The translations under genes were made by a program, and so were the position numbers. The notes beneath the pieces are model-generated. The model made no database searches. It had not been told where the DNA came from and saw only the letters and a list, made by a program, of their open reading frames with translations. From Bacteroidia bacterium (lineage in GTDB: Bacteria; Bacteroidota; Bacteroidia; Bacteroidales; JAPLDU01), in NCBI GenBank assembly GCA_026391255.1, contig JAPLDU010000069.1, positions 367 through 64,366 of the forward strand: a stretch of DNA of 64,000 nucleotides. Direction: 5' to 3'. Positions 4,445-15,828 of the stretch are shown piece by piece. The stretch's first letter is position 1, and each line of letters begins with the position of its first letter.

Positions 4445-6424
4445 CTATTCTATACCTAACTTTTTGAAAAATATTTTGTTACGCATTTTTGCATCATCGA
4501 TTAGTTTTCTGTAACTTATAACTTCAATATATGCATTAAAACCACTACTAAAACCGAAGTATCCTTCTCCATCTGGACTAATTGTCAAAGAAAATCCTTT
4601 TGCAAATTCATGAATTTTATCGGCAATATCACTGACAACATAAATAAATACAGGAGTTTCGTTGGAAACTTTTATAGGTTCAAGTCCATCGGGCATTTCG
4701 TACATTCCTAATCTAATTTTTTCTGCATATCTACAAGCCTGCATTATTGGATTTTCGTTGTCAGGGTAATTTGTGCGTTTAGGTCTTTTAAATTCAAATA
4801 TCGTTAAAGGACTTGTTGTGATATTTTCGCCGTGACGATAAATACATATTTCTTCGTTAAATACGATTAAATCGGGTTCTATGGTTTCTGATTTTGAAAT
4901 TATCTTGTCTGAAGCGACATACTGAGAAAATACCAATCTTTCATCGAGCAACCATAAATTGTGATCTTCATAATCCAAATTTTCAGTTGTCCGCCCCATT
5001 GGGAAAATCAAATTATGCAATTCAGATTCTAAATGAGCCTTATTATCTATTTCTCTCCGTTTCCTTAATTCATCAAAAGTATCAATAATTAATTTTCTAT
5101 TGCAAACATAATGAGCTAAATCGTTTTTGCCATTTTGGGAAACGGTAGATATTATTTGTTTAAATTTTTCGTCAGTTGTATCTTTTTCATTGGCAATAAT
5201 TTCTTTAATTTCCATGTGAGTTTCTTGTTCCTTTTTGAATTTTAATTTTTGAAACTCCATTTCAATTTTCTCATCAGACAAATTTGTTGGCAAATTTGTA
5301 AAATCAAAATTATTTAAATAAATTCTGTGCCACGGTGCTTGTTTAATTACATAATTCTTTACTTTTTCTGTTTTCTTTTCAAAACGAGAAGTGACATCTT
5401 CTTCGAAAAAAGACCTTACAACATTTGCAACTTCTTTTTCAATTTCAGCCAGCCCCAAGGGATATAATCTATCACCTACATCCTTTGCAAAGTCAAAAGA
5501 TTCTCTTTCCAAAGAAACATTATTGTTCAAGTATTCACCTAATACATAAGATTTTATGATATAATTTTTCTTTACATCATTTGTAATGTCATAGAATTCA
5601 TCTTGAAATTCAGGAATATAAGTTTGCAATGTAGTTTCCGTTACTTCTCTATTATGTGCTGCCAAAACTACTTTGCTTGATAACGGAGAAAAATATATTT
5701 TATAAACTTTTACGGTAAAAGGAAACTCCAAATTATCTATAGTACTTTTAACAAAAATTAGTTTTTCTCCAACTTTTGAAATTGAATTGTTGTCGTTAAT
5801 AAAGTCATTAAGAATAATTGATGCTGACTTGTCGCTTTCACGTAAAGTAATTTGAGGAACATTTAATGTAGTGTTAACAAAAAAGACTAATAGTTTTTCC
5901 ACAAGTTTTCGTGCAATAACATCAAGACCTTTATCTAATTGTTCTTTATCAATAATATTTTTCAATATCAATTTTGTGCCAGTATAATTTTCTGTTGCAT
6001 TGCCTTCTTCTTTATCAACAATAATTTCGTCGTGTTTTCCAAATCGAAAATTTCGGAATTTATAGTTGTTTCCTTCCTTGTACTGACTTTTAATTATTAC
6101 ATCATTGAAATATTTCAAATAAATAAAGCGACCAAAACCCTTCCCCCCCGTTTCAAGTTTTATTTCACTTAAATATGTATCAAAAGAATCTGTATTTTCC
6201 TGTGTAAATCCTACGCCATTATCATTAACCTCAATATTAATGATATACGGTTTCGCATTGTCAAATTCAAGCACATTTTCACGATAAACAATAATATCTA
6301 TCTTGCCATTTGGGTTATTTCCAATGGCATCAATAGAGTTAACAACTGCCTCAACGATAGGCGAATAAACATTAGATTTACTCTTTATGTTTTTAACTAT
6401 ACCTAAAATGTTTATCTTGCTCAT
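4445..6424 (-). CDS. GHKL (Hsp90/MORC-like) ATPase with putative C-terminal PD-(D/E)xK nuclease domain
   Basis: EAVVNSIDA, DNGVGF, GGKGFGR and GT GHKL boxes; C-terminal EPDL...IFEFKRP. Confidence 0.7.
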   Translation of the reverse strand: MSKINILGIVKNIKSKSNVYSPIVEAVVNSIDAIGNNPNGKIDIIVYRENVLEFDNAKPYIINIEVNDNGVGFTQENTDSFDTYLSEIKLETGGKGFGRFIYLKYFNDVIIKSQYKEGNNYKFRNFRFGKHDEIIVDKEEGNATENYTGTKLILKNIIDKEQLDKGLDVIARKLVEKLLVFFVNTTLNVPQITLRESDKSASIILNDFINDNNSISKVGEKLIFVKSTIDNLEFPFTVKVYKIYFSPLSSKVVLAAHNREVTETTLQTYIPEFQDEFYDITNDVKKNYIIKSYVLGEYLNNNVSLERESFDFAKDVGDRLYPLGLAEIEKEVANVVRSFFEEDVTSRFEKKTEKVKNYVIKQAPWHRIYLNNFDFTNLPTNLSDEKIEMEFQKLKFKKEQETHMEIKEIIANEKDTTDEKFKQIISTVSQNGKNDLAHYVCNRKLIIDTFDELRKRREIDNKAHLESELHNLIFPMGRTTENLDYEDHNLWLLDERLVFSQYVASDKIISKSETIEPDLIVFNEEICIYRHGENITTSPLTIFEFKRPKRTNYPDNENPIMQACRYAEKIRLGMYEMPDGLEPIKVSNETPVFIYVVSDIADKIHEFAKGFSLTISPDGEGYFGFSSGFNAYIEVISYRKLIDDAKMRNKIFFKKLGIE

Positions 6425-6593
6425 AATGAACCAATCTTATTGCTTTGTAAAATTGCTTTCTGGTTACACGAATGTCATAGGTAGATATCTTCTTTCGTTG
6501 AAATTTTTCTAATTTTTAGATAAAAATATTTCAAAAAGGTAAAATTTATTTATTAAAAAATATTAATCATTTCTCCATTTTCAAAATTATAAA

Positions 6594-6601
6594 CAAAGAT
6601 A
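6594..6601 (-). promoter_or_regulatory. Bacteroidota -7 promoter box upstream of the GHKL cargo gene
   Basis: TATCTTTG on the minus strand matches TAnnTTTG, just downstream of the ATPase stop. Confidence 0.4.
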
Positions 6602-6637
6602 TAGATTACTTTTTAAATATATATTTAAAAATGTACA

Positions 6638-7198
6638 TTAAAATATTTCCATTTCTCCAAATGATGCAAACCTCCCATTTCCCTTAGCCATCCCATCAGC
6701 CACCTCTATGATAACGTCCACCTCATGGGCATTCTCGTTTTTGCCCCGGAAGTTACCTTCTTTGGTGGTGTGGTAAATGAAGATAAATGATGTTCGGGGA
6801 TTGTCCTGGCGAAGCTGGCGGAGATAGTCCAGGTCGAAGCCGGCACGGGAAACGCTGTCAATGAATACGAAGTCGTATGCTGATAGGTTGTACGGGACTG
6901 CTTCTGAAACATACAGGTTAGGGTCAATTGCCCTGAGCCGTTCCACTTTTTCCTTCAGGGTGTAACCGAACTTTTCTTCAATGGCACAGTAGAGAACTTT
7001 TCCATGATATTTGGCGAGGTGCTTTGCAAAGTCAATGCAGAGGGTAGATTTGCCGGATTTGGGAAGTCCATAAACCATTGCTGAAAACCCAACGCAGGGA
7101 TCACCGATCAGTTCCCGGTATTTTCCCTGGAGACCGATGGTTTCAAATTGCATCTGGGCAAGACGGGTACTGGAAATAACGCCGGAATCTGCTTTCAC
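6638..7198 (-). CDS. RecA-superfamily (Sms/RadA/KaiC-like) P-loop ATPase; probably the C-terminal part of a -1 frameshift fusion with 7195..8169
   Basis: Walker A GLPKSGKST, Walker B FVFIDS, HTTKEG..RG...AHEVD; weak GTG start; frame is open back to the A9 run at 7237-7245. Confidence 0.8.
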   Translation of the reverse strand: MKADSGVISSTRLAQMQFETIGLQGKYRELIGDPCVGFSAMVYGLPKSGKSTLCIDFAKHLAKYHGKVLYCAIEEKFGYTLKEKVERLRAIDPNLYVSEAVPYNLSAYDFVFIDSVSRAGFDLDYLRQLRQDNPRTSFIFIYHTTKEGNFRGKNENAHEVDVIIEVADGMAKGNGRFASFGEMEIF

Positions 7199-8169
7199 AG
7201 CAGTTTTATCCGTCTGATTTTTGCTACTGGCCGGACTTTTTTTTTACTACCGGCTTTGGCAATCCCCATCAGTCCGTTTAGTTCTGATTTGCTGATCTGT
7301 GGTGATTTGGTTTTTTCAGTCAGGTAATCATTCAGGGCATTGTAGATCAGGTTCAGCTTGTCAGCATAAGGATCATTCTTGATGATCTTCATGTTCTTAA
7401 CTGCTTTGGTAAGCTTGTCAAATAAAACTTTTGCCTTTTCCTTTACCCCGCTTTTACCATGCAGGCTGATATACTGTTTGATGTAGGTTACCGATAACAT
7501 GGTTTTTTCGCTGTAGGCAATCTCATGATACTTAGCCAGGGTGTCTTTGTCAATGGATATTGCAATACTATCACCCATCTTCTGATAACAGGATATAAGC
7601 TGGTCCTGTATGTTCTCAATTTCTTTGGCATACGGGGAGGTCTTCCGGATTCGTTTTTCCAGGATGGCTTTTTGCAGGGTGTTGATAAAAGACAGAATTT
7701 CTTTCTGTGTCCTGGTCTTGCCGTCAAGCAAAACATAACGCCTGATAAAAGCAATCTCAGGTTTTATCTTTTCCACCTTTTCAGCAGTATCCTGTTTCTT
7801 TGCCTTCTTTGCCTTTGGCTGTTTCTTTGGCCTGGCAGGTTTTGAAACTTTTGGTTTCTTTTCCTTTTTCTCAGCCTTCACATTCTTTTCAGGTTTTGCT
7901 TTCGGTTGCCGGCTTTTTTGTTTCGGCTTTTTAACTACCGGTGCAGGAACTTCGCTTTCTTTTTCCGGTTTTACTTCGTTCTTTTCAAGATAGTCATCTA
8001 ATTTTTCCATGTAGGAATCCACCACTCTGCGGATGTTTTCGTTGGAATGATATGCCGACCAGTTGTTTTGTGAAGCTCCTTGTACCAGTTTGTTCCCGTT
8101 TTTCAATGCTTCCGGTAAATCAGAAAAATTGATGCTTCGGGTAACTTCAAAATAATTACTTGTATTCAT
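7195..8169 (-). CDS. Basic, Lys/Pro-rich linker protein of unknown function
   Basis: 324-aa ORF with ATG start, K/P/E-rich central linker, overlaps the ATPase ORF by GTGA. Confidence 0.7.
   Translation of the reverse strand: MNTSNYFEVTRSINFSDLPEALKNGNKLVQGASQNNWSAYHSNENIRRVVDSYMEKLDDYLEKNEVKPEKESEVPAPVVKKPKQKSRQPKAKPEKNVKAEKKEKKPKVSKPARPKKQPKAKKAKKQDTAEKVEKIKPEIAFIRRYVLLDGKTRTQKEILSFINTLQKAILEKRIRKTSPYAKEIENIQDQLISCYQKMGDSIAISIDKDTLAKYHEIAYSEKTMLSVTYIKQYISLHGKSGVKEKAKVLFDKLTKAVKNMKIIKNDPYADKLNLIYNALNDYLTEKTKSPQISKSELNGLMGIAKAGSKKKVRPVAKIRRIKLL
7237..7245 (-). other. A9 slippery run 1 (candidate -1 frameshift or transcriptional slippage site)
   Basis: AGT AAA AAA AAA GTC; the -1 frame reads KKSPASSKNQTDKTAVKADSG... 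into the ATPase and is closed by TAA immediately before the run. Confidence 0.7.
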
Positions 8170-8204
8170 GATGTTTAGAGTTATGAATTATGAGTTATGA
8201 TTTA

Positions 8205-8648
8205 TTAATTGAGTTGTAATAGTTCAAGTTCCAATTCGAGGGCAAGGGCTTCGAGTTCCAGTTCACTGAAATTTTGATTGTAAGATTCAGGTTTGTTCTC
8301 AGCTTCCGGTAGCATGTGTCCGCCTTGGTTGATCATGTCTTCTGCTTTATAAGCCAGCAGGTAATTGAGCTTTGCAAATTCAGTTGCCCTGTCCTCTGAG
8401 GTTTTGCCTTCCACCTGGAGGGCGGATTTCTTTTCCTCGATCTCACGGGTAAGCGACTGCCAGCGTGGAGACCTGTTGTCCCCTTTGTACAGTTCCGATT
8501 TCTTTTGGACAGCTTCTTTGTCCAAGTTGTACGATTCGAGAACCTGCGAAAGGTCACTGTCAATGGAGCATCCTTTTGGTTTCAGGATGGTGCGCTCTGT
8601 CTTTCTTACCTTTGATACATATTCCTTAAAATAGCCGATGTACCACCT
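8205..8648 (-). other. In-frame continuation of the helicase ORF beyond an amber codon (C-terminal ~147 aa)
   Basis: After TAG at 8649-8651 the same frame reads RWYIGYFKEYVSKVRKTERTILKPKGCSIDSDLSQVLESYNLDKEAVQ... to the stop at 8205 with no further stop. Confidence 0.7.
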
Positions 8649-11600
8649 CTAGCTGAAGTAAATACCGAGGGTTCCATAGCTGTTTTCAATTTTTCGCCCT
8701 ACAGAAAGGATTTCCTTGTCTTCCTGGGTACTACCATTAAGCAAAGTTTCAATTTCTTCCTTGAGTTCTTTTGCCTTCTTTCGTTTTTTCTGGGTCAGTT
8801 CATCTTCTTTTTCGGCTGCTTTATTTCCCATTTTAAGATATTCAGAGTTCAGTAATGACTGGTAAAAACTGCGAATAGCCTTGATTGACTCATCCCGGTA
8901 ATTGTTATAATCGTCAATATCGGATTGAATATCTTTTATCATCTCAATGGCACGGTTCACCTTTGCAATCTCCCTGTTTAACTGTTCTTTTTCCTGGTCA
9001 AAGAATATGCGTACCAGGCGGTCAACATCTGTGATCAGCGCCAGCTTTATTTCTTCAGGGTTTAGGCTCTCCAGGTCAAGCACATTGCCCCGGTCTCCCT
9101 TGAACCAAATGTCATTGATACGTGAAGTCTTTTCTTCCAGTTTTTGAAATACAAATACATCCATCGAGTCCTGGACAAGAGGCATAACAATCCGCACATA
9201 TCCGAACTGGTTACCCTGTCTCCAGATGCGCCCTTCGAGCTGCCGAAGATCAGTCGGGTTCCATTCAGGGTAACAGTTGTAAATCACCGTTCCACGTTTT
9301 TGCAGGTCAATCCCTTCCCGGATGGTGGCAGTACCAATAATGACCTTTACCACACCGTCGAGGAATGCTTCTTTGATTGTTTCTTTCCGGTTATCATTAA
9401 TATCAGAATTGATAATTTCAACCTCGTCTAATTTGGTACGATTAAACATCACACCGGTCTTAAAGCCTACTTCTGCTTCCAGGTACTTTTTGATCATCGG
9501 GAAAAACTGTTTGCCCCGGTTCATATAGATCACCTGCCCGGAACAATCATTGCCGGTTGTTTCATGCCATTGCTTTACAGAGCGTATGCACTCCATCACA
9601 TAATTGATCTTGGGGCTTTCACGGACAAACTCACGGTAATCTTCAGGGTGTCCATTCAGAATGAAAGGGGAGAGGGCATTATCGAGGCTGTGAGCTAATG
9701 CACGGAACAGGTTTCCCATATCGAGTTTGCCCTGGGTAGAGCTTTTAGCCATTTCCACAATCTTGTTCTGGTTGATTCGTTGTTTGGCAGTCATATTGAT
9801 ATAGGTCAGTATCTGCCGTTCCTGGCTTAACCGGATGGATTTGCCGTTGATAGTATCGTACAAAAGTGGCAGGTTAATCTTTCGTGGACGGACCACCCCG
9901 GCTTCTTCACCTGTCCGGTACAGAATATGATTGTATATAAGTTTCTGCAATACCCGTCGGTTGGTAAAGGATTTGATGACTTCCTTTTCAACGATCTCTT
10001 CCTTGTAATTGGCTGCCCATTCTACGGTTGGCAGAACAAACAGGTCAAAAAAGGTGTCAATATTGTAAATCCCGCTTTTATACAGGCTTTCATGGGCAAC
10101 CAGAGAGAGCATGGAGTAAATTTCCAATGGCGAATTGGTAAAGGGGGTAGCGGTAAGCAGCATGGTATTTCGTCCAAACTTGCGCTGGATGTAATTCAGG
10201 ATCAGGAATGCCTTTTGACCGGTTTCTGAGGTGGCCGATTGAATGTTGTAGCGTTTGTTCCCTTCTTCATCGGCTTTTACCTGAGAAAACACGTTTTTGC
10301 AACGGTGGGCTTCATCAATCACCACATAATCAAAACCCAGCACATCCACATCACCGACTGTGTCTTTAAGCCCGACACCAATCATTTCACGAAACTTCTG
10401 GTATTCGATTTCCTTGTCCCTTGCCGTCTTTTCCTTACTTTGTCCGAGTATGTTCACCAGCTCGGTAAATAGCTCGTCCGATACCGACTGGCCAAAGCCA
10501 AGCCTTTTGAAACCTTCATAAGTTACGATAGTGACACTGTTACCGGGAACCGGTGCAGAAAGGTTGATTTTCTTTGTAATATCCGATCCCATGTTGAACC
10601 AGTCATTCAGGGTAATCCCTGTATGTGACAGCATTCCCGAAACAAACTCCTTAGACTTATTATCCTCAAAGCCAATGATCTCATTAATCCATTTTTTATA
10701 GGTGGCTTTAGGAACTACAATAAGTGGTCTTTTGCACTTCCCTGAATAGAGACAATGTGCCAGTGTTGCTATACTGGCTGCTGTTTTTCCGGCGCCGACG
10801 TCCAACGCAAGAATGCCACTTCCCATTGTTTCCATAAAGGCGATACTCTCACGCTGAATGTCCGTCAATTGTAGGATTCCACTCTTAAAGGTGGCTGAAC
10901 ATTCAAAACCAATCGGAACCCTCTGGTATGATATGTCGCTTTGCCCATTGTATAGCCTGTTCCAGGAATAATCTAATTTTTCCTGGTCAGAAAAAGTCAG
11001 GACTTCATATAAAAATCTTGAAAACAGTTTTTCCCCTTCAATCCTTGCATTGGCCTTGAGTTCAGATTTTTCCTCTTTTGTTAGCTTGTCGTCCCTGAGC
11101 GGGCGACCGGCAATGTAGTAATCAGCAATATCAATGGCGCTTGATTTTTCAAAGTCAGAATCACTGTTCAGGGTAAACAGCCACTTGACAAATACCTGCT
11201 GAAGCGAATAGCGGTTCTGACCGTCAAAGCGAAGATTGATCTTCTCCTTTTCCCGGTCACGCCTTCTCTCTACTTTGCCATTAACCTTTTTAAGCTGTTC
11301 GGCATTTTCAACATCCATGTATTCATCACGTACTTCTGAGATTGAAAAGACATCGGTATCACTGGCAAAGTCAGATATAGCGGTAATGATGGGTCGTTCC
11401 TTCTCATCCGGGTTAGTAACAGTTAGCAATATTGGTTTTGCTTTAAGAATCGTCTCCCGGTGACTGTCATATACTGCCTGACCCCAACGGGACAGGATTG
11501 TATCCTTGTCTTTTTCTAATTGCAGCTCCCTGTCATACATGTTTCCATAGGTATAGACAGGGAAGGGAACCATTTCACCATCCATGAAAAACAAAGCGTT

Positions 11601-12143
11601 TTTCTGTACCAGTTCTGATAATTCACTTTCACCTGCATGAGCCAGTCCACGAACTAATTTGCAATCGCTACCGGGGACATAGTACAATCCGTCATTATTG
11701 CGGTAGATGTAGTATTTCTCCTCATCTGCATAGTCATGGGTTTTAATGTATTTGCCAAGCTCTACGCCTTTTTCAACGCTGCGGATGTCTCTGAAATGAT
11801 TGTCTTTTATTGTAGTTGCCGATGTAGTAACCACAGTTTCAATATAACTGCCTCCTTTGATGAAGTATTTCTCCCAGCCGGTCATTGGTACACCAAGAGT
11901 GCGTTTGTACCAGACCCATGCCCTGATCTCATCCGTGGTGATCCCCTTGTTGTAACGCTCTACCACATCGGCAAAGCTCATAGTTTTTCTCTGTGTCTTT
12001 GCAACATCACCCAGACCGTTAAAATAATGGGCATCAGCAAGCACTTTGCTGATAATGTCTTTGTTGGCATCTATATAGTTGGTAACAGTCGGAGTAAGTT
12101 CTCCAAGTCCGCTGAAACCTGATATTCCGTTTAAATAGCTCAC
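8649..12143 (-). CDS. SNF2-like superfamily 2 helicase, DarB-type
   Basis: LDVGAGKT, VIDEAHR, LTATP, EGIDLQ, QLEGRIWRQGN motifs. Confidence 0.85.
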   Translation of the reverse strand: MSYLNGISGFSGLGELTPTVTNYIDANKDIISKVLADAHYFNGLGDVAKTQRKTMSFADVVERYNKGITTDEIRAWVWYKRTLGVPMTGWEKYFIKGGSYIETVVTTSATTIKDNHFRDIRSVEKGVELGKYIKTHDYADEEKYYIYRNNDGLYYVPGSDCKLVRGLAHAGESELSELVQKNALFFMDGEMVPFPVYTYGNMYDRELQLEKDKDTILSRWGQAVYDSHRETILKAKPILLTVTNPDEKERPIITAISDFASDTDVFSISEVRDEYMDVENAEQLKKVNGKVERRRDREKEKINLRFDGQNRYSLQQVFVKWLFTLNSDSDFEKSSAIDIADYYIAGRPLRDDKLTKEEKSELKANARIEGEKLFSRFLYEVLTFSDQEKLDYSWNRLYNGQSDISYQRVPIGFECSATFKSGILQLTDIQRESIAFMETMGSGILALDVGAGKTAASIATLAHCLYSGKCKRPLIVVPKATYKKWINEIIGFEDNKSKEFVSGMLSHTGITLNDWFNMGSDITKKINLSAPVPGNSVTIVTYEGFKRLGFGQSVSDELFTELVNILGQSKEKTARDKEIEYQKFREMIGVGLKDTVGDVDVLGFDYVVIDEAHRCKNVFSQVKADEEGNKRYNIQSATSETGQKAFLILNYIQRKFGRNTMLLTATPFTNSPLEIYSMLSLVAHESLYKSGIYNIDTFFDLFVLPTVEWAANYKEEIVEKEVIKSFTNRRVLQKLIYNHILYRTGEEAGVVRPRKINLPLLYDTINGKSIRLSQERQILTYINMTAKQRINQNKIVEMAKSSTQGKLDMGNLFRALAHSLDNALSPFILNGHPEDYREFVRESPKINYVMECIRSVKQWHETTGNDCSGQVIYMNRGKQFFPMIKKYLEAEVGFKTGVMFNRTKLDEVEIINSDINDNRKETIKEAFLDGVVKVIIGTATIREGIDLQKRGTVIYNCYPEWNPTDLRQLEGRIWRQGNQFGYVRIVMPLVQDSMDVFVFQKLEEKTSRINDIWFKGDRGNVLDLESLNPEEIKLALITDVDRLVRIFFDQEKEQLNREIAKVNRAIEMIKDIQSDIDDYNNYRDESIKAIRSFYQSLLNSEYLKMGNKAAEKEDELTQKKRKKAKELKEEIETLLNGSTQEDKEILSVGRKIENSYGTLGIYFS

Positions 12144-12186
12144 TTTGATACGTTTATTAGTTTATTAATAATGTCGGGGTTTTGTG

Positions 12187-13245
12187 TTATAACTTTCCAA
12201 GTCCAGACATGACAGTCTTTGCTAACCTGTTGAGTTGATTCTTATTAATTGAAATAGTCTTGGTATTTTGATTAGTTGATTTTGAGTTTTCTATTCTCTG
12301 ATTGGCAATTTTTACATACTCAGGATTAAGTTCAAACCCTATGTATTTTCGGTTAAGCCTTTTTGCAACGATAGCAGTAGTACCGCTTCCGATGAACGGG
12401 TCCAGTACAATACCTTTTTCCGGGCAACCTGCCATGATTGGTGTTTCAATCAGCTGTTCAGGGAACACTGCAAAATGAGCCTCTTTGAATGGTTGTGTGC
12501 TGATTGTCCAGACAGTCCGTTTGTTTCTTCCTTTGGCATTTTCATCAATATATGGAGCTGACCGTGCCCTGATCTTGAGTTCATTTCTTTTGTCATGCTG
12601 ACGGTACTTACTATTGTACTCCCTGCGTCCGTCTTTCATTCGCCGTATATCGTATTCATTACTTGAAAAGTCCTCGAACTGCTGATCGAAATAGTAGCTT
12701 TTTGATTTTGTAAAGAAAAAAAGGTATTCAAAATCGTTGGTAAAACGATCTTTCACGCTTTCAGGCATTGCATTTGGTTTATTCCAGATGATAGTGTTTC
12801 TCAAAATCCAACCTCTTTCGACCATCCCTAATGCAAACCGTTCTGGTATCAGAACCAGGGATTTTGCCTTCATATATCTGTGCCTGTGTGCCATTGGCGG
12901 TTTGCCTTTTGAAGCTGCATAGTAACCGGCTTCAACCGGCGCTTTCTGAAAACCAGTCTCAGATGATTTTCTGACCCTAAAACCCTGCAAACTTCCCCAA
13001 TAGGTATCACCAATGTTAATCCAGGCTGTTCCTTCATTTTTCAGAACACGATAAACTTCATCAAAGATTTTCAGTAGCTTTTCTATGTATTGCTCAAATG
13101 ATTTTTCCAGCCCTATTTGTCCTTCGACCCCGTAATTACGCAGTCCCCAATAGGGTGGTGAAGTAACCACGCAGTCAATGCTGCCGGAAGGAAGTTTTTT
13201 CAGCCCTATCAGAGCATCGCTTATATGTATATGGTCTAAGTTCAA
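12187..13245 (-). CDS. Beta-class N4-C/N6-A DNA methyltransferase (solitary)
   Basis: VTSPPY before VLDPFIGSGTT; TTG start. Confidence 0.9.
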   Translation of the reverse strand: MNLDHIHISDALIGLKKLPSGSIDCVVTSPPYWGLRNYGVEGQIGLEKSFEQYIEKLLKIFDEVYRVLKNEGTAWINIGDTYWGSLQGFRVRKSSETGFQKAPVEAGYYAASKGKPPMAHRHRYMKAKSLVLIPERFALGMVERGWILRNTIIWNKPNAMPESVKDRFTNDFEYLFFFTKSKSYYFDQQFEDFSSNEYDIRRMKDGRREYNSKYRQHDKRNELKIRARSAPYIDENAKGRNKRTVWTISTQPFKEAHFAVFPEQLIETPIMAGCPEKGIVLDPFIGSGTTAIVAKRLNRKYIGFELNPEYVKIANQRIENSKSTNQNTKTISINKNQLNRLAKTVMSGLGKL

Positions 13246-13276
13246 GAATTTACGAGTTATGAGTTAAATTCATTGG

Positions 13277-14230
13277 TTATTTGATCTTTAATAGTTGTAA
13301 TTCCACTTCAAGGGCGAGGGCTTCAAGTTCAAGACTATTATCGGTTTTCATTATACCTTGAGATTCCTGCCTTATGTAATATTCCATTTCTATATTGATA
13401 ACATCCTTAATTTTGGTTCTCCAGTATTGTTCCTGTCCCGGTCTTTCGGTAATTGCAACCATTACATCATCTGCGTAAGTCCAATCATTATCCTGGTTAT
13501 GCTGCAATCCCTTGCTGAGTGCTATTTCATTGATTAATTCCCGAAGCCCGCTACAGTATTCCATCCAATCCTGTTCAAATTCAGCATTGTTTTGAGATAG
13601 TTTTCCTGAGATTTCATTAAGCTTTTCATTAATCTCTTTTCTTTTAAGCTTGTCCCTTCCTGCTGCTTTCAGGTTTTCCTTTTCTGCCTGAAACTGTTCT
13701 TCCAAAGGATTCAGCAATACCTGGAACTGTTCATATTTATCAAAGTAGTTCCCTTCAAACCCTGAAACCGTTAATTCAAGGACATCACTGGAACTTCCAA
13801 AACGGTTTGCTCTTTCCAGTTTTTGATCTACCTTATTTTCCGATTCCTGGGTTTCTATTTCTGAATCCATTACACTTTCTTCCATTGCTTTGTTGATCGT
13901 AATTTCAATATCCTCTTTTGTCCCTTTTACCGTGATCGGAAATTCCCTTGAAGTGCTGATAAATTCTTTTCCGCATATCTTTTCAGGGTACATATCGAAC
14001 CAGGTGTTAAAGCGGGTCGTTTCAGTAAAGGTAAGTGGCTCATTCAGCGAAAACGTCAGGTAATACTCCTCTTTCAGCAATTTCTCGTAATCGTATTTTA
14101 CAGAATTCGGGATAAAACCATTTCTTACAAGTACCCTGTCATTATTCTTTTCTTCAGTACTTTCAGGAAGTGTTTCCAAAAGCTTTTTGATAGTTACAAT
14201 CCGGGCCCGGTAATATGAAGCTGATTCCAT
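13277..14230 (-). CDS. Hypothetical protein with a DarB-like 'WF..YPEK..G' segment, coiled coil and C-terminal ELEALALEVEL tag
   Basis: FNTWFDMYPEKICG resembles the F..HPE.V.G linker motif of DarB-like proteins (recalled, not searched). Confidence 0.5.
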   Translation of the reverse strand: MESASYYRARIVTIKKLLETLPESTEEKNNDRVLVRNGFIPNSVKYDYEKLLKEEYYLTFSLNEPLTFTETTRFNTWFDMYPEKICGKEFISTSREFPITVKGTKEDIEITINKAMEESVMDSEIETQESENKVDQKLERANRFGSSSDVLELTVSGFEGNYFDKYEQFQVLLNPLEEQFQAEKENLKAAGRDKLKRKEINEKLNEISGKLSQNNAEFEQDWMEYCSGLRELINEIALSKGLQHNQDNDWTYADDVMVAITERPGQEQYWRTKIKDVINIEMEYYIRQESQGIMKTDNSLELEALALEVELQLLKIK

Positions 14231-14262
14231 TTATAAGAGTTATGAATTATGAGTGATGAGTG

Positions 14263-15030
14263 TTAATCATATTCTTCCAACTGCGATTCAAGTTGTGGAA
14301 TGATAGCTGCGGGTACTATCTGATGGCTGATCACCTGTTTGATAATTTGTTCTTCCATTGCCCTGTACCCATCTGCCGATTGAATCTTTTCCCAGATATT
14401 CGGAGAGTTTACTTTTGTGACTTTCTTTAGCTGGTCAAAGATTTCCTGGCGTAGCTTGTTTTCAATGGCACTTGAAGTGCTGTCTTTACTGCCGGATAGT
14501 GAAGCATCCCCATGATCAACAAAAGAATAGTAGCTGTTTTTGGTTGCAATGATGTGGTCAAGAATAGCAATATCAAAGTATTTGAAAGCCTCTTTCAGCT
14601 TTTTGGTAATGTCCTGGTCAGGTTTGCTCGGTTCAGCGGTCCCCGAAGGATGGTTGTGCGACAGGATCACTGCTTTTGCCAGTATCTTAATACCAACGGC
14701 AACAATCAGCTCTACATCAACCTGTGTTGAGTTGATCGTACCTTTCGAGTGCTTATAATAGCCAATGACCTTGTTTCCCTGGTTCAGGTATAGCACAACA
14801 AAATGTTCCTGGATTTCAAGCCCTTCATAAATGACCTCTTTCACGAATTTGTAGGCATCATCAGAGCTTTTGATTGAATTGTAGATCAGCCTTTCTTCTT
14901 TGAAGGTTATGTCAATTTCCTTAACCCGGAAATCATTTTCAATCTCCTTGATCCGCTTGTTCAGGTCATCCAGTCCGACCCCGGAGAGGACGAAATGGGC
15001 TTGTGGTATATTTTGTTTATAAATAGCCAT
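14263..15030 (-). CDS. RadC-like JAB domain protein
   Basis: EHFVVLYLNQGNKVIG...KGTINSTQVD...ILSHNHPSGTAEPSKPD. Confidence 0.9.
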   Translation of the reverse strand: MAIYKQNIPQAHFVLSGVGLDDLNKRIKEIENDFRVKEIDITFKEERLIYNSIKSSDDAYKFVKEVIYEGLEIQEHFVVLYLNQGNKVIGYYKHSKGTINSTQVDVELIVAVGIKILAKAVILSHNHPSGTAEPSKPDQDITKKLKEAFKYFDIAILDHIIATKNSYYSFVDHGDASLSGSKDSTSSAIENKLRQEIFDQLKKVTKVNSPNIWEKIQSADGYRAMEEQIIKQVISHQIVPAAIIPQLESQLEEYD

Positions 15031-15069
15031 GTTTTGAGTTATGAGTTATGAATGATGAGTTATGAGTTG

Positions 15070-15828
15070 TTATTTTTTCCTAAAAACCAGAATATCTGTC
15101 GGAACTTGCGATTCTTTGAACACAGGTGGTAAGCGGTAGGCATCAATAATATCGGCCAGTTTACCAATCTCATCTTTTTCATAGTTGTAGGAGATCCCGT
15201 TTCGTAAGAAATTTGAGGATGTGAGGTAAATCAGCAATCCCCCTGTTTTCAAGAGTTTTAAGCCGTAATACATGAAAAACAATTCGATCTGGTGCATATG
15301 TGGAGTTGGAAAATATGAGCTGTACTTGTTTTTGTACTTCCCGTAAGGTGGGTTACCAATGACAAGTGAGAAGGGATAACCTGTCAGCCAGGTAAGCTGA
15401 TTGGATTTTATCCGGGTAGTAAACCTTGGTGGATTAAGAAAAGCCGTTTCAAAATAACCCCGGTACACTTTTGCATCCGGGTAGTTGATCTCACAAATCC
15501 TTGCTGTCACATCGTTTATCTCAAATGTGGTGACCTTTGATTTATCAGGCAGTGGACTGATCAGGCGACCGGTTGCAACGGATGGCTCCAGTACTGTGCC
15601 CCCGTCATATCCGTAATGCACTGCAAGCCGGTACATCAGGTCACATATATAAGATGGTGTATAGAATTCATATAATAATCCTTCACCCGTAGCCCCTTTG
15701 CTACCTTGTCCGCCAGCTCCCTCATACCTGTTGATAAACTCAATATCAGTCAGGGAATAAGGTTCAGCCTTGCTGTCCTTATCCCTGATAAAGCTTTCGA
15801 TTGCCATATTTTGCTGATACTGGTTCAT
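15070..15828 (-). CDS. N6-adenine DNA methyltransferase (gamma class, DarB/Eco57I-like MTase domain)
   Basis: VLEPSVATG (motif I) followed by IGNPPY (motif IV). Confidence 0.85.
   Translation of the reverse strand: MNQYQQNMAIESFIRDKDSKAEPYSLTDIEFINRYEGAGGQGSKGATGEGLLYEFYTPSYICDLMYRLAVHYGYDGGTVLEPSVATGRLISPLPDKSKVTTFEINDVTARICEINYPDAKVYRGYFETAFLNPPRFTTRIKSNQLTWLTGYPFSLVIGNPPYGKYKNKYSSYFPTPHMHQIELFFMYYGLKLLKTGGLLIYLTSSNFLRNGISYNYEKDEIGKLADIIDAYRLPPVFKESQVPTDILVFRKK

Follow-up and report, generated by a model that had tools for sequence, protein, structure and literature searches.

Very few systems have revealed how proteins delivered along with invading DNA are chosen and kept together; those known are the N-terminal signals of T4 and P1 and the tails of type IV secretion substrates. 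In P1, the targeting sequence of DarB suffices to bring a foreign protein into the particle, and no targeting consensus common to the Dar proteins was found when one was sought (Gonzales et al. 2022, PMC9024508). The account of the so-called polyvalent proteins describes a methyltransferase-SNF2 dyad of the DarB type and no conserved helix between modules (PMC5512222). Here we analyse a stretch of 64,000 nucleotides from a Bacteroidia bacterium (assembly GCA_026391255.1, contig JAPLDU010000069.1, positions 367 to 64,366 of the forward strand; hereafter the window, its first letter being position 1), in which two proteins from the anti-restriction gene block of a putative virus-like element end in the same short peptide. 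From the letters alone, this peptide had been proposed to be a docking, packaging or export signal for proteins delivered with the DNA. We find it to be conserved and, with no Pfam or NCBIfam model, no sequence match in the PDB and no occurrence of its exact strings in the 8.4 million papers searched, previously undescribed; the same short consensus recurs on several unrelated anti-restriction modules in hundreds of related elements of a major phylum and persists when genes fuse or split.

The shared C-terminal peptide and its carriers

The first carrier is a protein of 317 residues (13277..14230, minus strand) with an N-terminal DUF8306 domain (PF26972), a helical middle part of about 180 residues and the C-terminus ...NSLELEALALEVELQLLKIK. 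The second is a SNF2-family helicase of the DarB-like methylase-helicase type, whose body of 1164 residues (8652..12143, minus strand) matches Pfam SNF2-rel_dom and Helicase_C as well as PHROGs, among them DarB-like antirestriction. Past an in-frame amber codon (TAG, 8649..8651, minus strand) the helicase frame continues for 147 further codons (8205..8648, minus strand) and ends in ...SELELEALALELELELLQLN. The consensus of both ends is LELEALALE(V/L)EL(Q/E)LL, a 15-residue core followed by exactly three residues and a TAA stop codon: LELEALALEVELQLL (13289..13333, minus strand) is followed by KIK and TAA (13277-13288) in the DUF8306 protein, and LELEALALELELELL (8217..8261, minus strand) by QLN and TAA (8205-8216) in the helicase. 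The peptide, which we call the tag, measures 15-18 residues and is predicted to be helical. When the DUF8306 domain and the helicase tail were compared profile to profile (hhalign), the probability was only 0.3%, indicating that the carriers are unrelated outside the tag; the original observation of a common C-terminus on two dissimilar proteins therefore stands. In a fuzzy six-frame search of the whole 4.08-Mb assembly, allowing up to 5 substitutions, these two were the only copies, and a profile hidden Markov model (HMM) built from 93 tags scored them at 32 and 22 bits, against 1 bit for the next match in the window. Neither the search of the assembly nor that of the window revealed any further tagged protein.

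The amber codon that separates the helicase body from its tagged tail had been taken for a read-through site. We compared this region with 95 helicase-tail homologues, nearly all of which are continuous proteins of about 1220-1310 residues, or of 1408-1456 residues with DUF8306 fused in front, and to whose tails the 147 codons align over their full length. The nearest relative, L001, is 82% identical in the tail and has CAG (Gln) in place of the amber codon; other homologues have N, R or K at this position. Against L001, the 147 codons show a pN of 0.17 and a pS of 0.70, corresponding to an omega of about 0.1, and they contain no further stop codon or frameshift, indicating that the tail is genuine coding sequence, as the sequence-only reading had argued. 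Programmed read-through itself has to be rejected, since the stop codon is not conserved, TAG serves as the ordinary stop of two other genes in the same strand-contiguous run, and none of the 35 tRNAs detected, in an assembly that is incomplete, is a suppressor with a CUA anticodon. As judged from these comparisons, the supposed read-through gene is an interrupted gene, and the amber codon either arose recently as a CAG-to-TAG (C-to-T) nonsense mutation or is an assembly variant.

Of the 95 helicase homologues, at least 92 have (E)LELEALALE(L/V/I)ELELL plus two or four residues, or a basic counterpart of this peptide, as their C-terminus, and all 25 close full-length homologues of the 317-residue protein end in LELEALALE(T/V)ELQLL plus two residues. 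With the same peptide ending nearly all homologues of both carriers, the match between the two ends in the window is, by sequence comparison, not due to chance. Absence from homologues and a wide distribution over host proteins had been named as observations that would speak against the proposal; given these counts and the two genomic copies, neither was seen. To chart its distribution, we searched 185,579 species, each represented by one genome, with a degenerate DNA pattern encoding LEALALExEL, which matched at least 120 loci. Among the matches listed, about 77 are from Bacteroidota (Flavobacteriales, Chitinophagaceae, Cytophagales, Bacteroidales, Saprospiraceae and Sphingobacteriaceae), and all but two of these stop exactly 5 or 7 residues past the pattern. 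About 40 of those listed come from high-GC phyla; there the frame runs on with no stop nearby, which marks them as chance matches. Cultivable carriers of the element family include Ohtaekwangia koreensis DSM 25262, matched in this search, and Flavobacterium myungsuense. The sequence-only reading had called for such a search. As judged from gene order, all carriers belong to one syntenic family of integrated, putatively tailless virus-like elements of Bacteroidota. Phage and plasmid collections contained no match to either carrier, and IMG/VR has one related contig (L127) and no exact acidic tag.

The tag is not confined to the two protein types of the window. A DUF8306 profile of 115 residues retrieved 295 cluster representatives (50% identity) from 1.84 billion proteins, and about 158 of the 180 members examined have a tag after the domain; 108 of these tags lie no more than six residues from the C-terminus, and 36 are internal, with modules such as LPD1, PBECR3, MuF_C or the helicase following. 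Many short members, such as one of 137 residues in L001, consist of just the domain and the tag (135-150 residues). A third carrier type, found in Cytophagales, combines an N6-adenine methyltransferase with an NPPF motif and a Strawberry-notch (Sno) helicase (AAA_34, Helicase_C_4) in a protein of about 1566 residues, which has one tag between its parts (...IELEAQALALELELMSFDELG...) and another at its end (...LELEALALELELELLNFAA); L006 carries such a fused methyltransferase-Sno form. L125 carries a further internal tag in the protein after the helicase, three tags in total. Partial fusions in relatives comprise the DUF8306-SNF2 proteins mentioned above, the methyltransferase-Sno proteins and a RadC-methyltransferase protein of 438 residues. 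In the DUF8306-helicase fusions, the junction retains the tag, and the former start of the helicase comes a few residues later (...ELQLF-KKSTN-MGYLNGI...); no open reading frame (ORF) was found to begin with a tag, which always belongs to the end of a module. The description of the tag as a terminal feature therefore fits the stand-alone proteins, which it ends, but has to be widened for fused relatives, where it sits at module junctions.

Two further observations concern these module ends. The N-termini of the helicases (12100-12143 in the window, and homologues) all begin with M(S/G)(Y/F)LNGI......LG.L, and in fusions the glycine motif is kept after the internal tag. L134 (241-4717) has no SNF2 or Sno helicase in front of the gene that follows the helicase elsewhere; instead, it encodes a methyltransferase-like protein of 601 residues, an AAA_5 ATPase, a protein of 353 residues and one of 100 residues, the last of which ends in a mixed tag-like helix, KRKRLELEAKALELLQNQYKERI. 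Judging by this locus, the tag system may serve further module types.

Charge of the tag and a candidate partner

Among 66 distinct tag DNAs, all six leucine and all four alanine codons are used. The two tags of the window differ at synonymous sites, and those of L124 are identical in 14 residues with four synonymous differences. Since synonymous codons vary so freely, selection must act on the peptide, and a DNA- or RNA-level element or a recent gene conversion can be rejected as the cause of tag identity. We also considered mimicry of an SSB tail, of a beta-clamp motif or of an ssrA-like degron, all of which are incompatible with the existence of basic variants and with the residues at the end of the tag.

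AlphaFold2 models computed with alignments place the tag at the end of a helix in the 317-residue protein (residues 274-315, pLDDT 54-71), the DUF8306 core of which is modelled at low confidence and the fold of which has no significant Foldseek match in the PDB. In the helicase tail, the tag forms a separate helix (pLDDT 81-86) after a disordered linker of 21 residues (pLDDT about 40), which is the most variable stretch of the tail alignment; the tag, for its part, is more conserved than the domains it adjoins. The helix has a near-zero ordinary amphipathic moment and a strong two-fold one, that is, a low first and a high second harmonic, and presents two opposite Leu/Ala faces with two charged stripes between them (shuffle p <= 0.045 for six of six variants tested). 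Acidic, all-basic (RIRIAKAKALAKIKLLKLL, KAKAAKAKLALLNI) and mixed (ELELEALALALKLKLL) variants all keep this two-faced pattern, and the DUF8306 proteins examined divide into about 78 with acidic, 57 with basic and 23 with mixed tags. What had been described as an acidic, leucine-rich helix is thus predicted to be a helix with Leu/Ala faces, but its acidity is dispensable, about one third of the family being all-basic.

The tags of one element share their charge class. Among the 33 elements or fusion proteins that allowed both tags to be read, there is not a single discordant case: basic/basic pairs number five, a single pair is mixed/mixed, and all others are acidic/acidic. The agreement extends to idiosyncratic variants, such as KAKAAKAKLALLNI in both tags of L124, ALAL(K/R)LKLLNF in both tags of P0131/L128, GLFDF in both of P0134 and DDELEMLELEAEAL in both of L125, and both tags of L127 are basic. 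Pairs within elements are more alike than pairs between elements (permutation p ~5e-5). On a tree of the DUF8306 domain, which is weakly resolved, the basic pairs require between one change, if only supported branches are counted, and five changes on the best tree, and we regard the tree-aware evidence for tag-tag matching as suggestive.

A second correlation points to the gene directly after the tagged helicase, encoding a protein of 324 residues (7195..8169, minus strand). We compared the flanks of ten relatives in full (L001, L123-L128, L130, L132 and L133), together with 8-kb loci. A protein with the same start, MIT..NYF...LPEAL, follows the tagged helicase in every related element examined, in most relatives joined in one chain of 465-600 residues with a RecA-like ATPase. 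In the window this ATPase is encoded separately (6638..7198, minus strand); it is a P-loop protein of the RecA superfamily with weak matches to Pfam AAA_25 and AAA_24, a match to the ATPase family phrog_6891 and weak Sak4- and DnaB-like matches. We refer to the two parts together as the candidate hub. Residues 20-51 of the 324-residue protein (EALKNGNKLVQGASQNNWSAYHSNENIRRVVD; 8017..8112, minus strand) form the segment that differed between tag classes, with a charge opposite to that of the tag, and thereby a candidate socket. Its net charge over 120 homologues is bimodal, at about +1 to +3 or at -5 to -9. In acid-tag elements it lies at about 0 to +3, and in seven of seven basic-tag elements (six counted automatically, and L127) at -5 to -9. 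With the prediction set beforehand that an acidic segment goes with a basic tag, six further contigs were picked solely by their hub sequence. The prediction agreed in all four that could decide it (L130, L131, L132 and L133, each with a basic helicase tag); of the other two, L134 combines an intermediate segment (-3) with a mixed tag, and L129 is a remnant without a helicase. Conversely, no basic tag occurs among the 66 elements whose segment is neutral or weakly basic; 64 of them are acid-tag elements, ascertained through the acidic pattern itself, and two are mis-picked ORFs. The association of tag class with segment charge gives a Fisher p of 6e-9 with kinship ignored, and both charge classes occur with SNF2-type as well as Strawberry-notch-type helicases. 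A hub tree from which the segment was left out offers three independent contrasts on supported branches, and all three run in the same direction.

Because the tags co-vary both within elements and with a neighbouring protein, we consider common docking the best reading of these data. With moderate confidence, sequence comparison suggests that the tag is an end-of-module docking helix for one common, co-evolving partner, most probably the hub's N-terminal domain. The proposed docking signal would thus be retained, but the partner to which the covariation points is an ATPase-linked protein, not a capsid protein. The block at the end of the structural operon would encode the parts of a DarB-like 'polyvalent' anti-restriction machine, namely methyltransferases, RadC, the DUF8306 protein, a SNF2 or Strawberry-notch helicase and the RecA-like ATPase protein, made separately or fused depending on the lineage. 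The DUF8306 protein, the helicase and, in one architecture, the methyltransferase would end in a short helix on a flexible tether, and by binding a common hub these helices would hold the separately made modules together; in fused relatives, proteolysis may separate the modules instead. The assembled set may finally enter the particle and be delivered with the DNA. Uptake into the particle is proposed because the block is co-oriented and contiguous with virion genes, and packaging and delivery can reasonably be inferred from this gene position and from P1 (PMC9024508, PMC12810830).

Several observations weigh against this interpretation. The two methyltransferases and RadC are untagged and would need another route if the tag were a ticket for delivery. 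The hub segment of acid-tag elements is only weakly basic, and a comparison of acid- and basic-tag elements found no convincing charge-flipped segment in the alignable structural proteins, many proteins being unalignable. Once kinship is taken into account, the independent events are few, one to five for tag-tag and three for tag-hub matching, which puts significance out of reach, and occasional older gene conversion between the two tags of an element could yield part of their matching.

It is conceivable, if rather unlikely, that the tag is a strict capsid-targeting peptide, which binds a shell, scaffold or internal-membrane protein, and that its link to the hub is merely phylogenetic. The contiguity of the block with co-oriented virion-like genes would suit such a role, as would the sharing of the tag by several cargo-type proteins and the precedent of DarB, the methylase-helicase archetype, which belongs to the virion and whose targeting peptide is transferable (PMC9024508; PMC5512222). 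However, three of the five enzymes lack the tag, the alignable structural proteins offer no charge-complementary segment, and the hub is the only co-varying protein found. The covariation with the hub would also be left unexplained if the tags paired with one another and re-joined split modules without a third partner, in the manner of the C-terminal helices that assemble the subunits of type I restriction-modification systems. Most elements do have two tags, which flank the helicase module, some lineages have both carriers fused (a Rosetta-stone argument), and the tags of one element share idiosyncratic variants; yet tags of the same charge sign, all E or all K/R, are unfavourable for direct pairing, the helix has two opposite hydrophobic faces instead of one seam, and L125 has three tags, so that we give such a self-association zipper little credence as well. 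An E/K-type heterodimeric coiled coil in particular is rejected, given the equal sign of the tags and their low first-harmonic and high second-harmonic moments.

The junctional tags raise the further question of whether the tag serves processing, as an exosite for the candidate cysteine protease of the element, which would cut polyprotein-like fusions at glycine motifs after internal tags. An [LI]xG motif lies within 4-20 residues after about 13 of 16 internal tags, and processing has been proposed for polyvalent proteins (PMC5512222). This explanation nevertheless strikes us as improbable, since stand-alone proteins conserve the tag equally well at their true C-termini, with nothing left there to cut, and some junctions, such as that between RadC and the methyltransferase in L128, have a glycine motif without a tag. 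Finally, the position of the tag at module boundaries, where genes fuse and split, might reflect a passive cap or linker without a specific partner, or a signal at the level of nucleic acid or translation, for instance a hotspot at which recombination shuffles modules, or a context for termination. We regard this as very improbable: the free variation of synonymous sites argues against a constraint on DNA or RNA, the charge inverts while the hydrophobic pattern stays, the tag is more conserved than the attached domains despite its disordered tether, and coordinated variation would be superfluous for a passive cap.

If docking to a common hub is taken as the starting point, a more far-reaching and less probable picture can be drawn. 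The element might encode a non-covalent polyvalent protein, in which interchangeable anti-defence enzymes (methyltransferase, SNF2 or Strawberry-notch helicase, DUF8306, LPD1 and others) assemble on one probably ring-shaped ATPase, are loaded into the particles of an uncharacterised family of tailless Bacteroidota viruses and are delivered with the DNA; acidic and basic plug-socket pairs would then represent mutually incompatible specificity classes. With a 15-residue peptide and a specific candidate partner, the selection and assembly of proteins that accompany invading DNA become directly testable. Should the proposal prove true, the peptide would provide a simple handle for attaching or loading foreign proteins, and a rule for recognising delivered proteins in many unannotated Bacteroidota proviruses.

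The anti-restriction block and its element

A co-oriented gene run of about 21 kb in the window, beside a tyrosine integrase gene and a tRNA-Ser gene, ends with the block; the run shows weak virion-type matches (tail and virion-structural PHROGs, two SLT lysins). The gene order is the same in all flanks read: lysin/SLT and DUF6549 genes are followed by an Eco57I-type methyltransferase, RadC where present, a small conserved module ending in IPQLE, the DUF8306 protein, the helicase and, last, the hub. In the window, the block begins with the gene of an untagged Eco57I-type N6-adenine methyltransferase (15070..15828, minus strand), assigned by domain match and by the gene order of relatives. It has an invariant C-terminus of its own, ...VPTDI(L/I)V(F/L)(R/K)(R/K)K (15070-15090 in the window; also L123-L128), in all relatives seen. 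The next gene encodes an untagged RadC (JAB) protein (14263..15030, minus strand) with a C-terminal extension of about 75 residues, which in relatives is a free-standing small gene. A third untagged enzyme, an N4/N6 DNA methyltransferase (12187..13245, minus strand; Pfam N6_N4_Mtase, E = 8e-57), is encoded between the two tagged genes and is missing from L001; three of the five enzymes of the block thus lack the tag. As in the dyad of the DarB type, methyltransferases, here of the Eco57I and N4/N6 types, neighbour the SNF2 helicase.

The gene content of the block varies at defined places. At the methyltransferase position (12187-13245), the gene is absent in L001, where the DUF8306 protein is the short one of 137 residues; elsewhere, a Dam-type methyltransferase (PF05869) is fused before DUF8306 in some relatives, and a C5 methyltransferase is inserted in L133. 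This position appears, from these comparisons, to be a hotspot of methyltransferase swapping. The RadC extension (14263-14500 in the window, about 75 residues) corresponds to an independent small module of 66-84 residues directly upstream of the DUF8306 gene (L123 9310-9564, L124 9801-10001, L125 8706-8936, L126 9578-9802, L127 7516-7749), which is present even where RadC is absent. Its conserved end motif, P(A/S)A.IPQ(L/I)E, could be a second type of conserved module end. In L127, the IMG/VR relative (6228-7411 and 12105-15100), the cargo in the block includes an ArsR-like regulator, a heavy-metal-associated membrane protein and a small Cys-rich protein, and an ORF of 698 residues lies between the helicase and the hub gene.

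The block of the window is further distinguished by its leaders. A G-free heptamer repeat, (TCATAAC)n, as in AACTCATAACTCATCATTCATAACTCATAACTC, occurs in short leaders directly upstream of four start codons, those of the 324-residue protein (8178-8203), the N4/N6 methyltransferase (13254-13265), the DUF8306 protein (14237-14255) and RadC (15036-15068), all on the minus strand. There are 10 matches where 1.1 are expected, and none in the 128 loci compared, so that the repeat is lineage-specific; it may act as a translation-initiation leader.

Comparison with known systems

Short peptides that recruit different proteins to one partner are known from several unrelated settings. The cargo-loading peptides of encapsulins are short and C-terminal, are common to different cargo enzymes of one operon and bind the shell in extended form, with a peptide sequence that follows the type of its docking partner. 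The tag described here differs in being a predicted helix, and the protein with which it co-varies is ATPase-linked and not a shell protein. In adenovirus, the short C-terminal peptide pVIc of the virion precursor pVI binds the adenoviral protease, and glycine-type cleavage motifs lie nearby. The tag has no sequence similarity to pVIc and is retained on several enzymes, and a protease is only a candidate here. Type IV secretion signals resemble the tag as C-terminal tags on proteins that travel with transferred DNA, a journey that is here proposed. In contrast to such systems, however, no relaxase, coupling protein, VirB4 or other type IV secretion component was found among the element ORFs scanned (Pfam on 29 window ORFs, PHROG on element ORFs), and the carriers have no plasmid match.

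The closest parallels are P1 DarB and T4 IPIII, in that a short terminal peptide is found on a methyltransferase-helicase anti-restriction protein encoded with virion genes. The signals of P1 and T4 are N-terminal, however, whereas the tag is C-terminal or junctional, has a clear consensus on several unrelated modules and belongs to a putative tailless element. In its enzymatic content, the family resembles the polyvalent proteins (Iyer, Burroughs, Anand, de Souza, Aravind 2017, PMC5512222), with which it shares adenine methyltransferase and SNF2/Strawberry-notch helicase, RadC, an SMS/RadA-like ATPase, LPD1, PBECR and MuF-C, as well as the location adjoining virion genes. Polyvalent proteins, however, unite 2-15 domains in one polypeptide, whereas the domains of the window are encoded by separate genes, and Pfam and PHROG revealed no embedded processing peptidase (MPTase) in the block. 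By its domain content, the window is a split form and not a strict member of this class; if docking to the hub holds true, the tag would explain how such split 'polyvalent' proteins still work as one machine.

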